Positions 5,413-9,443 of a DNA stretch of 22,150 bases are shown here, in pieces. The position numbers and the translations under genes were made by a program. The stretch lies in IMG/VR virus record IMGVR_UViG_2617270955_000009; one strand, 5' to 3'. Position 1 is the stretch's first letter. Every line of letters begins with the position of its first letter. The notes beneath the pieces are model-generated. The model was not told the DNA's origin. It worked only from the letters and a program-made list of their open reading frames with translations, and did no database searches. The stretch comes from a virus. Lineage: Duplodnaviria > Heunggongvirae > Uroviricota > Caudoviricetes.

Positions 5413-6603
5413 TTAATTGCTGTTAACCGAGGTGACCAGATTTGCCAGGTATTTATCGGTAATACGCTGGCGCAGGGTCAGGTTTTCAAGAGGAGGCACC
5501 GGGGTATAGTCGTAGTCGATATACAGTTTTCCGGCCTTGAGGGTTTCCGCATCGTTGGATTCTTCGCTGAACCAGCAGGTCGCATCCACGATATAGCCGT
5601 TTGTTTTCAGCTCACGGAATTTGGCATTGATACCGTCAACGATGTCGCGAATCAGCGTTGCGGTGATGGGCTTGTCCACCGCCCACATGTGCGCCTCAGC
5701 CATCGTGTCGGCCAGCACCTGCGCGGTGCGGGTGTAGTTTTCAAAGAGGAACAGCGGGTCATCAGAGCAGGTACGGTTACCCCAGAAGCGGAAACCGTCG
5801 CGGCGAATCAGCGTAGTGACGCCTGACTCGTTAAGCAGGTCAGCATCAGTGCCGGACTCCTGCAAATCCCAGAATACAGATGCGCTGATGCCGGTAACAC
5901 CGTTTACCCCGACGTTGGACAGCGTTTTATGCCAGCCCTGCTCCTGGTCGATTTTAGCGCGCAGACCCAGCGCACGGGCGGTGGCATACGCGGTGGCGGT
6001 GGTGCTGGTGACCGTATCCCATGCGAGGAAATCCGGCCAGATGACCATCAGCTCACGCTGGCTGAAATTCTGGCGGTAGGCTTTCACCTCGGAAATGGTT
6101 TTACAGCCCCATGCGCTGATATACCCGAAAGCGCGCAGCTTCTGACAGACAGATGCCAGTGCAACAGCCACCTCTTTGGTGTCCAGTCCCGGTACGCCGA
6201 GAATACGCGGTTTAACACCGGTTACCGACTCCGCCGCCAGCAGGGCTTTCAGTCCGGTGTACTGACCGTTTTCGTCGGTGGTGCCGATGATATTGGAAAC
6301 GGTCTGCGCAAGTTTCGTTTCTTCGTCGTCGCCGGTGCCGTCTTCAACACGCACGACAACGGTGACCGGTTTTGACTGGTCAGCGATGGCCTGCAACGAC
6401 GCCGCCAGCGTGCCTTTTTTACCAGCCTTTGCAATTGCGCTCTGCACATTGGTAATCAGCACCGGTTTATTGAGGGGGAAGGTTTCCGCATCCGCATCGC
6501 TGGCCGTGCAGACCATGCCGACAATGGCAGTGGATACGGTGGAAATGACGCGGGTGCCGTCGTTAATCTCCAGCACCTGCACGCCGTGATGATAGTCACT
6601 CAT
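5413..6603 (-). CDS. FI: Contractile tail sheath protein FI, 396 aa
   Basis: 396-aa ORF; length and synteny match P2 gpFI. GGAG Shine-Dalgarno sits about 10 nt upstream of the ATG on the minus strand. Confidence 0.92.
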   Translation of the reverse strand: MSDYHHGVQVLEINDGTRVISTVSTAIVGMVCTASDADAETFPLNKPVLITNVQSAIAKAGKKGTLAASLQAIADQSKPVTVVVRVEDGTGDDEETKLAQTVSNIIGTTDENGQYTGLKALLAAESVTGVKPRILGVPGLDTKEVAVALASVCQKLRAFGYISAWGCKTISEVKAYRQNFSQRELMVIWPDFLAWDTVTSTTATAYATARALGLRAKIDQEQGWHKTLSNVGVNGVTGISASVFWDLQESGTDADLLNESGVTTLIRRDGFRFWGNRTCSDDPLFLFENYTRTAQVLADTMAEAHMWAVDKPITATLIRDIVDGINAKFRELKTNGYIVDATCWFSEESNDAETLKAGKLYIDYDYTPVPPLENLTLRQRITDKYLANLVTSVNSN

Positions 6604-6704
6604 CCGTTTAACTCCGTGGTTAATGGGTGCAACTATTTTCTGTTGTGCGAAGCATGAGACGCTATTTGACCTGGCTGGTCAGTGAATGAAACAACAGATA
6701 AAGA
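6604..6704 (-). promoter_or_regulatory. Expected late promoter region for the FI-FII-E-T-U-D operon (P_F equivalent); exact elements not resolved
   Basis: About 100 bp between a terminator hairpin and the FI start. Contains a TGACC-N5-GGTCA dyad (6667-6681) and a TGTTGT...ACAACA pair, but I could not find an exact TGT-N12-ACA Ogr-site consensus. Confidence 0.3.
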
Positions 6705-6729
6705 AAAGACGGGCAATCAGCCCGTCTTT
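6705..6729 (-). terminator. Rho-independent terminator hairpin (minus-strand oriented)
   Basis: AAAGACGGG-caatcag-CCCGTCTTT, a 9-bp stem with 7-nt loop, followed on the minus strand by the T-rich tract TCTTTATCTGTTGTTTC. Confidence 0.6.
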
Positions 6730-6777
6730 AAATCACAAATTTTGACAGTTTTTGATTTGCATTCGAGAATAACAGTT

Positions 6778-6800
6778 CGGGGGAGAAAAAACCTCCCCCG
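6778..6800 (-). terminator. GC-rich hairpin immediately 3' of the cargo operon (probable terminator)
   Basis: C-GGGGGAG-aaaaaac-CTCCCCC-G, an 8-bp G/C stem 15 nt after the TAA stop at 6815-6817; the downstream minus-strand tract (GAACTGTTATTCTC) is only moderately U-rich. Confidence 0.45.
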
Positions 6801-6814
6801 CCCACGTAACTTGC

Positions 6815-7864
6815 TTAACTACATGAATCAATGATGTTTTTCACAAGCTTATTTATTTCAGATTCATTAGTGCCAAATTCACCCGCTTTAAAATTAATAC
6901 CTCGCGCTGCAAGATTTCTTTTTATTTTACTTACTTCACTCAGCATAAAGTCATAATTTAACGTTTTTTCTTTAATGCCCTTTGAATATATTACAGGGAA
7001 GGCTTTCATTAATGCCGCATATCCTGTGAGTTTACTTAAATAATATTCCCTTGGTGTATTCCACTCAACTGGATAGACATTGCTAATAGCATTAAAATAA
7101 TTCAATATTATTTTTTGAATTACAGCGTCATTCTCTTCGATAAAATAATCGCGGAATATACACTGATTATTTGGCGTTAATGGCAGATTCATTTTTAACA
7201 TTCTTGCATCATCATCAGGTTTTTTTGAAATATGTTGGATAAGATATTTAATGAAAGTGCTTTGTGATAATGATGCATTATCTTGGTTTATTTCCTTTTT
7301 CCCAAGCATTTTTAGCTTTTTATAAAAAGGGGAATCAGGATTACTGTTTATTCCTCTCGCGATTTCGTGGCATGTTTTTTGTGGACTCCTGCGTTCTGCA
7401 AGCGAAAATAAATCATATACAATTGATGGATTTACACGAGTTTGTTTACTATTAATAATTGAGAAAACATAGGCTTTTTCTTCATCAGTAAGATCAAACA
7501 TTAAAACAACAGGTAGTTCAAAAAGTTTAGCATTAGAGGAATTTTTAATTCCCCATAATCTGTGTTGACCATCGATAACATCACCTATAACCACTTCAGA
7601 CTCAAAGTAAAAATAGGTATCATCCATTTTTAAATTGGATGAATCATCGACGGAAATTATGATCGGCGTTGGAAAAGTCGCATCCGGCTCACTAGTGTAC
7701 TTTGCGATTTCTGAAACTCTTGATGATGAAATATCCCTTTGCACACCAAATTCGAAATCTCTGCGACGATCAACTCTAACTATATCGAGCAAGTCAATGG
7801 CTCTTATTGATGTTAAATAGAAAGTACCGATTGGTTGATTAACTTCAATATATTTCAACTTCAT
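6815..7864 (-). CDS. DGQHR-domain protein (DndB-like, ParB/sulfiredoxin-fold), 349 aa; accessory cargo gene B
   Basis: Exact DGQHR motif at residues 98-102 (nt 7559-7573, VIDGQHRLWG), preceded by the family-typical N-terminal QPIGTFYLTSIRAIDLL element. AT-rich codon usage. GGAG Shine-Dalgarno 8-11 nt upstream. Start ATG overlaps the stop of the upstream membrane gene (ATGA at 7861-7864). Confidence 0.8.
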   Translation of the reverse strand: MKLKYIEVNQPIGTFYLTSIRAIDLLDIVRVDRRRDFEFGVQRDISSSRVSEIAKYTSEPDATFPTPIIISVDDSSNLKMDDTYFYFESEVVIGDVIDGQHRLWGIKNSSNAKLFELPVVLMFDLTDEEKAYVFSIINSKQTRVNPSIVYDLFSLAERRSPQKTCHEIARGINSNPDSPFYKKLKMLGKKEINQDNASLSQSTFIKYLIQHISKKPDDDARMLKMNLPLTPNNQCIFRDYFIEENDAVIQKIILNYFNAISNVYPVEWNTPREYYLSKLTGYAALMKAFPVIYSKGIKEKTLNYDFMLSEVSKIKRNLAARGINFKAGEFGTNESEINKLVKNIIDSCS

Positions 7865-8460
7865 ATCATAACTCCTTTACCATCATCAGTTACTTCATTG
7901 GTTGCCATTGTCTGATCTATAACTATTGCATCTTCTTTTTCTATATAACTTTCATCATTTATATCTGTATGTGCAGTAGCGTTAAGTTTTAATACGCCAA
8001 ATGTATAGCATACTAAGACTATAGAAATAACATAAATTATAGGTTGAGTTAAACCGAATGTTAAATCATTAGAATTTGGTAGGATTAAATCCTTTGATTG
8101 CGTAGCAGCGTATATTATACCTGATAATTGTAATAAAATAATCAATAATATTATTGATATGATTTTTATTGTTTTAAATTCAAGTTTTGAACTAAAAAAA
8201 GTTACAAACATAGGCCCAAGGGCAGAGGCTATTAATGCAATGGAAAATGTGTAAAAACTTCCTGACGAACCTTCTATGTAAATAGATTGATCTAGTGGTA
8301 TTGAATGTGAATAATATCTTATGATTATATTTGCAATAATCCCCATTTGCCCACAAACAACTGTAAAAACGATCCAAATAAAAAACTCTCTTTTGTTTTT
8401 TCTTATCGCATCGAATGGATAGGAAAGGGATTTCTTTAATATTTGCCAGTCTTTACTCAT
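7861..8460 (-). CDS. Small integral membrane protein, four predicted TM helices, acidic C-terminal tail (199 aa from ATG; 202 aa if the GTG at 8467-8469 is used); accessory cargo gene A
   Basis: Hydrophobic segments FFIWIVFTVVCGQMGIIANIII, FYTFSIALIASALGPMFVTFF, IKIISIILLIILLQLSGIIYAA and TQPIIYVISIVLVCYTFGVL; C-terminal DINDESYIEKEDAIVIDQTMATNEVTDDGKG. The ORF-track start at 8469 is a GTG; the first ATG is at 8458-8460 with AAGAG upstream. Confidence 0.7.
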   Translation of the reverse strand: MSKDWQILKKSLSYPFDAIRKNKREFFIWIVFTVVCGQMGIIANIIIRYYSHSIPLDQSIYIEGSSGSFYTFSIALIASALGPMFVTFFSSKLEFKTIKIISIILLIILLQLSGIIYAATQSKDLILPNSNDLTFGLTQPIIYVISIVLVCYTFGVLKLNATAHTDINDESYIEKEDAIVIDQTMATNEVTDDGKGVMI

Positions 8461-8646
8461 GTTATGCACTCTTTATTTAAACTTATCAACAATATGTAAC
8501 TATCAATTAATAACCGTTTACTCTTTTCAAATAATAAAATTATAATCATCAAAAAAATCGACATTATAATTAGACAACATTTTTAACACTAAGTGATACC
8601 TGACTCATGTCTCCAGACCCTAAAACCGCTTGCATAATTTAGAATG

Positions 8647-8675
8647 ATAATACTACCTTATAGTAGGCTTGTGAA
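8647..8675 (-). promoter_or_regulatory. Candidate sigma70-type promoter for the cargo operon (TTCACA-17 bp-TATTAT)
   Basis: Read from the minus strand of the AT-rich intergenic region; reasonable -35/-10 spacing but one of several possible matches in AT-rich DNA, with a long (about 180 nt) leader. Confidence 0.2.
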
Positions 8676-8864
8676 CTTATATAGCCTGAGTCAAGTAATT
8701 AATAAATCACTTATTTCGTTTTTTTTGCATTTGGTCGCTGTGATTTTTTCATAAACAAACTTACAATGATGTCAGCAATGTCTGCTCTTGGCACAGAGCG
8801 GACTGTCAGATTAGTTTTTACTCTGTGCCATAGATGTATAAACTCACATCAGAGCTTATACAAT

Positions 8865-9443
8865 TTATTGTGGCATTTCAGGCCATTCTATATCCGGAGC
8901 ATCTTCCGGCTGAATGCGATTCAGTAGCACACGGTATTTTTTCCAGTGTGTCAGGCTTAACTTTTCTTCCTCAGTTGCCATATCCAAATCGACAGCATCC
9001 TGCAGCGTGGCAATGATTTCACCTGCATATGCAATCTGCTCTTTCTTCTGAGACTCAGCCGCTCTGACAAGTGCATCACGCTCTGCATTCTCATCATTCA
9101 CCCACGCATTTCCGTTCCATTTCTGATAATCCCCCTCCGGGGAAATGGCTGTCACGTCTGGAGATAATGCGCCAAGTTCAGAAATATAAATGGCTGCTCC
9201 CGTTTTCGTTTCGTATACGGTCTTTCCGCGATGGTCTTCCATCAACTCCCATTTCATTTCATCTGCATTGAAAACGGCTGCATAACCAGCCGGTATATCA
9301 GGCGGCGCAATATCTGTACTGTTTGCAGGCAAACCTGTATACGGAGGAATATATGCATCACTTTCGCCAATAAATTCATTGGTTCCATCAAGTAAATTGA
9401 AAACGCGGATAGTTTGTGCTTCTGCACTCATTCTGAAAGCCAT
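8865..9443 (-). CDS. G: Tail fibre assembly protein (Tfa / gpG-like chaperone), 192 aa
   Basis: 192-aa ORF immediately 3' of tail fibre H with a Tfa-typical conserved C-terminus ([29 protein letters not shown]). Confidence 0.85.

Follow-up and report, generated by a model that had tools for sequence, protein, structure and literature searches.

A 35-codon frame overlapping the start of a membrane-protein gene in a P2-type prophage is very probably a recent chance ORF in an AT-rich leader

Comparison of homologous loci argues strongly that a small hydrophobic frame ending in the start codon of a prophage membrane-protein gene is no gene, but a recent chance ORF in a neutrally drifting AT-rich leader. 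The frame, termed here the micro-ORF, lies in a window of 22,150 nucleotides, the whole stretch of viral DNA that was analysed (Caudoviricetes; IMG/VR record IMGVR_UViG_2617270955_000009). It is present exactly as the initial annotation had described it, with 35 codons on the minus strand and a TGA stop that overlaps the ATG of the downstream gene (gene A). Its start codon is absent and its reading frame is broken in all the relatives that can be aligned there, which argues that the micro-ORF is not a gene; it would be neutral and untranslated. The features on which the argument draws are the following.

Positions 5413-6603: tail sheath gene (Phage_sheath), one flank of the cassette.
Positions 6778-6800, minus strand: terminator-like GC-rich hairpin, 15 nt after the stop of gene B, with a 9-bp stem (seven GC pairs) and a loop of 5.
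Positions 6815-7864, minus strand: gene B, for a 349-aa DGQHR-domain, DndB-like, ParB-fold protein.
Positions 7861-8460, minus strand: gene A, first of the cassette; its product is a membrane protein of 199 aa with four hydrophobic segments.
Positions 8457-8564, minus strand: micro-ORF of 35 codons (MSIFLMIIILLFEKSKRLLIDSYILLISLNKECIT) with its ATG at 8564-8562; very probably a lineage-specific chance ORF.
Positions 8461-8640, minus strand: putative AT-rich 5' untranslated leader of the A-B operon, ~180 nt, which holds the micro-ORF.
Positions 8647-8675, minus strand: sigma-70-type promoter, TTCACA-17 nt-TATTAT, matching the consensus at 10 of 12 positions.
Positions 8788-8835, minus strand: boundary hairpin, GGCACAGAG-N22-CTCTGTGCC, at the 5' edge of the cassette.
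Positions 8865-9443: tail fibre assembly gene (Pfam Caudo_TAP), the other flank of the cassette.

The window is a P2-type prophage. Between its tail-fibre-assembly and sheath genes lies a block of low GC content (23-39% over ~6700-8850; the sheath gene has 50-60% and the tail fibre genes ~45-55%), which contains two co-oriented genes, gene A for a 4-TM protein and the DGQHR/DndB-like gene B. At the same insertion site other P2-like phages match the flanks only, and the inserts differ there. For the identical island of E. coli AREA_502, the RefSeq/PGAP annotation gives genes A and B exactly, with gene A starting from the ATG at 8460, and does not call the micro-ORF. The block combines a distinct GC content, a promoter and a terminator-like hairpin of its own, and a slot between conserved phage operons, as is found in phage morons. 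On these sequence features the cassette is a moron of two genes, equipped with a promoter and a terminator of its own, both of which are predicted to be active.

The cassette extends over 2.1 kb of the minus strand, from about position 8832 to 6729 of the window, and it moves as a whole. Copies at 97%, 88%, 82%, 80%, 75% and 68% DNA identity lie beside integrases, type IV secretion genes, toxin-antitoxin modules and IS elements, and also in ordinary chromosomal neighbourhoods. The leader moves together with the cassette, and the region of the micro-ORF can therefore be aligned across copies. The island is found in three of 5426 complete E. coli genomes; all three copies are at least 99% identical and are thus uninformative about selection. 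A search of the phage and plasmid collections gave no copy of the cassette, as the matches corresponded to the P2 backbone flanks and to a short boundary element. A scan of genome contigs with single-protein patterns found nothing, and an alignment-based rescan of these contigs returned Bacteroidota relatives only, with leaders too distant to align. The Bacteroidota loci were used only for the search for ORFs that overlap the gene A start and for gene pairing. PADLOC gave weak DpdB matches to gene B only and no system for the pair of genes A and B, and two papers on P2 hotspots make no mention of this pair of a DGQHR protein and a membrane protein. In appearance the cassette is a candidate defence system, as yet uncharacterised, in the G/FI slot of P2.

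The two genes of the cassette are well conserved. The hydrophobic segments of the gene A product span residues 25-48, 71-91, 91-122 and 132-163 (KD), and the protein matches no family in Pfam, PADLOC, the TIGR models or PHROGs. The database holds 36 homologues, from 99% to ~39% identity, and an alignment of 17 of them, down to 37% identity, keeps 36 invariant columns. In all the Enterobacterales homologues the N-terminus aligns from the Met at 8460. Its different frame rules out that the micro-ORF is a mis-called extension of the gene A N-terminus; also against this reading, the extensions seen at the N-terminus of gene A in Bacteroidota are hydrophilic and unrelated to it. The gene B product scores 42.6 bits against Pfam DndB (cutoff 29.1) and 161.9 bits against the TIGR03187 DGQHR model (cutoff 58.85), and hence carries the domain. 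It stays below the equivalog cutoffs of both DpdB (56 versus 300) and DGQHR_dnd_1 (169 versus 450), and it is therefore filed as neither. The gene A and gene B pair recurs in Enterobacterales and in seven of eight Bacteroidota loci, in contexts that resemble defence islands.

The ATG of gene B overlaps the stop of gene A as ATGA and is preceded by a strong Shine-Dalgarno sequence (-8.2 kcal/mol). An overlap of 4 nt or 1 nt between the two genes is kept in all the Enterobacterales loci and in seven of the eight Bacteroidota loci. This conservation points to the A/B junction as the genuine translational coupling of the cassette.

The promoter places the micro-ORF with respect to the transcript. 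In 11 of the 12 leader variants, down to relatives of 69-71% identity, it retains both hexamers 17 nt apart, and the sequence between them drifts. Transcription would start near position 8640, ~7 nt downstream of the promoter, and the conserved promoter thus sets the micro-ORF inside a leader of ~180 nt. The distance from the promoter to the ATG of gene A is ~180 nt in the window versus ~120-155 nt in diverged relatives. From these elements we propose that transcription would proceed from the sigma-70 promoter (8675-8647), giving an RNA with an unstructured leader; ribosomes would initiate at the gene A ATG (8460), with its weak Shine-Dalgarno sequence, and would pass to gene B through the conserved ATGA overlap, with the strong Shine-Dalgarno sequence ahead of it. 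The Shine-Dalgarno sequence of gene A is weak throughout the copies of the cassette. A long (120-180 nt), AT-rich and apparently unstructured leader is kept across cassettes in spite of sequence divergence; xenogeneic silencing and a site for binding of a regulator are possible reasons for its length.

The stop of the micro-ORF, a TGA at 8459-8457, and the ATG of gene A at 8460-8458 overlap to read ATGA (8460-8457), and this placement follows from the fact that gene A begins with ATG AGT, of which bases two to four read TGA. The product is rich in Ile, Leu and Phe because second codon positions are T-rich in DNA of 26-30% GC. The initial annotation had noted that the frame lacks a convincing Shine-Dalgarno sequence. 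In agreement, the 20 nt upstream of its ATG (AAAAATGTTGTCTAATTATA) pair with the anti-Shine-Dalgarno sequence at 0 kcal/mol at best, compared with -2.4 kcal/mol for gene A and -5.6 to -8.2 kcal/mol for gene B and two flanking phage genes. The micro-ORF is thus devoid of this initiation signal, although a start independent of it is possible on AU-rich RNA. The micro-ORF matches no family in Pfam, PADLOC or PHROGs, and the exact 35-aa peptide is absent from ~15 billion predicted proteins; a gene A of identical protein sequence is recorded on 156 contigs.

The conservation of the frame was assessed in 28 copies of the cassette, which were gathered from graded loci of gene A homologues and from viral contigs and which represent 12 distinct leader variants. 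The state of the micro-ORF is given below, with the identity of the accompanying gene A.

Window, L001, L023 and L024 (gene A 100%): micro-ORF intact; the same prophage, 99.9% to 100% identical over the compared regions.
L011 (gene A 98%): ACA in place of the ATG; codon 14 TAG in place of AAG.
L027/28, Salmonella (gene A 99%, variant P0002, 399 contigs): ACA in place of the ATG; codon 14 TAG in place of AAG.
L029-35 (gene A 97%, variant P0011, 38 contigs): ACA in place of the ATG; codon 14 TAG in place of AAG.
L012-14, Serratia-type (gene A 98%): ACA in place of the ATG; frameshift by a 1-nt insertion before codon 14.
Remaining relatives (gene A 70-92%): multiple stops and indels in the micro-ORF frame.

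The micro-ORF is therefore intact in one leader variant of the 12, and this variant is a single clone. The ATG is missing in every relative alignable at that position, where the codon reads ACA, or ATT in the most diverged of them (L004). Two of the leaders with the TAG at codon 14 accompany the commonest gene A variants, P0002 and P0011. In the 11 variants other than that of the window, the frame ahead of the gene A start stays free of stops for 21, 21, 21, 21, 6, 6, 15, 4, 2, 2 and 25 codons. An upstream ORF of at least 15 codons that ends within -30 to +12 of the gene A start was found in none of 19 other loci, Bacteroidota included. The initial annotation had proposed that frameshifts or stops in homologous islands would speak against the frame, and both are found; its verdict that the frame is probably spurious is borne out. 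The other small ORFs of the spacer, on either strand, behave alike: they are shared among copies of at least 97% identity and gone in relatives of 91%. The exception is a frame of 27-34 aa at the 5' end of the cassette (VPRADIA..IIVSLFMKK), which persists further.

The rates of substitution agree with the loss of the frame. Against four close relatives, the segment of the micro-ORF shows 5.8-8.7% mismatches, with indels in some of the comparisons. The corresponding values are 2.6-5.3% for the rest of the leader and 4% for the promoter block, both free of gaps, and 1.5-2.3% for gene A and 1.9-2.8% for gene B, both with zero gaps. The divergence of the segment is thus three to four times that of the adjacent genes. 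Compared with the closest relatives, the frame differs by I>N, L>S, K>stop and L>S and by one synonymous change. This pattern bears no mark of purifying selection on a small ORF, at sites that are too few for a formal dN/dS. To judge by its substitutions and indels, the segment evolves as non-coding DNA.

The origin of the frame can be traced by polarising the differences with outgroups. The T at 8563, the G at 8562 and the A at 8525 are derived and unique to the lineage of the window; C and A occupy positions 8563 and 8562 in six relatives, and T occupies position 8525 in all eight. We propose that three point changes in the neutral leader DNA of this single prophage lineage gave rise to the micro-ORF. 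Two of them (ACA>ATG) would have made the start, and the third (TAG>AAG) would have removed the stop.

How readily such frames arise was assessed with 5000 shuffles of the 408-nt spacer that preserve its dinucleotides. As the initial annotation had supposed for AT-rich DNA, at least one ATG-ORF of at least 35 aa is present in 48% of the shuffled spacers (mean 0.61). Two such ORFs are present in the real spacer, on opposite strands, and outside the real genes the 2.3-kb island contains five ATG-ORFs of at least 35 aa. As a bare ORF, then, the micro-ORF is not beyond chance. An open frame of at least 35 codons that ends in the ATGA of gene A is found in ~5% of the shuffles, and one that also has an ATG in ~1%. 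The rarity of this configuration and the hydrophobicity of the product were singled out post hoc, and they are outweighed by the absence of conservation. The second ORF of the spacer, of 36 aa (MIILPYSRLVNLYSLSQVINK...) on the plus strand at 8644-8754, runs antisense across the cassette promoter; it is missing or changed in most relatives, in a spacer that yields such frames easily.

The ~1% configuration leads to the alternative that survives best, which we nevertheless consider improbable. The micro-ORF could be a newborn, lineage-specific uORF translated by ribosomes that enter the unstructured AU-rich leader at the AUG at 8564; after stopping at the UGA within the AUGA they would reinitiate on gene A and raise the expression of this weakly initiated gene, the peptide itself being irrelevant. 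The ATGA overlap expected of a coupled uORF is indeed found in the window. The pairing of gene A with the anti-Shine-Dalgarno sequence is weak enough that upstream translation could in principle help initiation. The leader is not unusually structured, so that the AUG at 8564 is probably accessible, and unstructured AU-rich leaders can be translated without a Shine-Dalgarno sequence. Moreover, the enabling changes are derived, and each of the four substitutions unique to the lineage within the 108 nt either enables the ORF or raises its hydrophobicity. Yet three of these four are guaranteed by the ORF having been noticed, no sign of selection accompanies them, and the rarity statistic is itself post hoc. 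The frame also has no Shine-Dalgarno sequence at all, and the lineage that carries it is as rare as the three E. coli genomes indicate. All the other cassettes, including those with the far commoner P0002 and P0011, do without any uORF; expression of gene A therefore does not require one. If it were true, this reading would offer a snapshot of the birth of a uORF that tunes the mobile operon of a candidate defence cassette.

A second alternative, that the frame encodes a genuine small hydrophobic membrane peptide acting as a third component of the cassette (toxin-like or regulatory) with the gene A product, is barely credible. The peptide is hydrophobic (GRAVY 1.23, within the top 2-6% of chance frames of like composition), it starts with a very hydrophobic 12-mer (MSIFLMIIILLF), and its frame adjoins a membrane-protein gene in the same orientation. 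However, the longest uncharged run is 12 residues, too short for a membrane-spanning helix, which takes ~18-20 uncharged residues; the remainder is broken by E, K, K, R, D and K, and the best 19-aa KD window (1.66) includes E, K, K and R. The peptide therefore has no credible transmembrane helix. The frame is destroyed in all relatives although both genes of the cassette persist in two phyla, the differences within it are mostly nonsense and non-synonymous, and it has neither a family match nor any annotation. The suggestion of the initial annotation that the frame, if real, would be a small leader or membrane peptide coupled to gene A thus finds no support in its initiation signal, in its charge distribution, in the structure of the leader or in the 19 loci.

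Equally doubtful is an attenuation-type leader peptide that steers alternative RNA structures and with them the expression of gene A. The cassette does keep a long leader, of 120-180 nt, and the micro-ORF lies wholly inside it, but the leader folds no better than its shuffles (z-score 0.11), its consensus structure over nine variants is weak (alifold -4.97 kcal/mol) with a negligible covariation term (-0.98), neither conserved alternative helices nor a terminator-like hairpin was found within 8461-8640, between the micro-ORF and gene A, an Rfam search of 6500-9000 placed no family in the leader, the ORF is absent in relatives, and it contains no runs of a regulatory codon.

Compared with known systems, the micro-ORF, read as a recent chance ORF, belongs by its sequence with the spurious short ORFs of AT-rich or acquired DNA. 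Like them it is short, has no Shine-Dalgarno sequence and owes its Ile, Leu, Phe, Lys and Asn to composition; like them it is unconserved in close relatives and evolves at a non-coding rate with indels. Unlike them, it runs exactly into the start codon of the gene that follows. With AUGA-coupled uORFs and leader peptides it shares a position immediately before a gene of the same strand, with an overlap of 4 nt, and it appears to mimic a translationally coupled uORF without being one. The real coupling of the cassette provides the contrast: the A/B junction has a strong Shine-Dalgarno sequence and extends from Enterobacterales to Bacteroidota, whereas the junction of the micro-ORF with gene A has an upstream frame that lacks this signal and exists in one clone only. 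We would neither annotate the micro-ORF as a gene nor pursue it as a leader or membrane peptide. The region would in truth hold the promoter and long leader for a mobile cassette of two genes in the G/FI slot of P2, and it is this cassette, with its uncharacterised cargo of a 4-TM and a DGQHR/DndB-like protein, that merits follow-up.

The cassette has counterparts among the morons at the Z/fun position of P2, between G and FI. GenBank records of these morons, such as AJ512677, reportedly go with a 2004 study by Nilsson, Karlsson and Haggard-Ljungquist (Mol Biol Evol 21:1-13). The cassette resembles them in being AT-rich and in lying between the tail fibre assembly and sheath genes. It likewise has its own -35/-10 promoter downstream of a boundary inverted-repeat element, which is 92% identical to that annotated in P2-EC31, and a terminator-like hairpin after its last gene. 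It differs in its cargo, which is neither ORF1 of P2-EC31 nor Z/fun of P2, and in that the window has no matching right inverted repeat.

The 3' edge of the cassette is marked by the terminator-like hairpin at 6778-6800. It lies inside the block common to other copies of the cassette, which ends at 6729, and it is likely the 3' end of the cassette transcript. A second terminator-like hairpin follows in tandem at 6705-6729 on the minus strand, straddling the junction where the homology with the P2 backbone resumes (~6716); it probably belongs to the phage.

At the 5' edge, homology to the cassettes of other genomes begins at 8799-8832, within the boundary hairpin. Over 48 nt this hairpin matches, at 92% identity, a portion of the annotated Z-region 'left inverted repeat' of P2-EC31 (AJ512677; L036 60-107), and a right inverted repeat to match it was not found in the window. 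The hairpin may be an element that bounds hotspot cargo or takes part in its recombination. On unrelated plasmids of Klebsiella, Salmonella, Pantoea, Yersinia and Citrobacter, unannotated spots (H71-H79) match the 55-78 nt with which the cassette begins. A 27-aa GTG frame (VPRADIADIIVSLFMKK...) at 8711-8794 on the minus strand is open and similar down to relatives of 80% identity (L002, L005). Because it coincides with the boundary element that is also present on the unrelated plasmids, its persistence is attributed to the DNA level, where the conservation probably lies. The DNA at 8770-8745 (CATTGTAA-GTTTGT-TTATGAAAAAAT) bears a loose likeness, judged by eye only, to dif/Xer-type sites. A partial Rfam match to IS009 (RF02111) lies at 8902-9000 on the minus strand, within the tail fibre assembly gene; its score of 39 bits is well below the gathering score of 117, and its 5' end is clipped by the edge of the searched stretch.

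The sequence of the 5' end recurs in a Pantoea copy of the cassette. There, 52 nt at 5428-5479 of L002 (5273-5324 of L003) are 79% identical to positions 8803-8752 of the window, and they lie downstream of the cassette, after the next gene (DUF6678). The element of the 5' end may thus bracket successive cargo modules.
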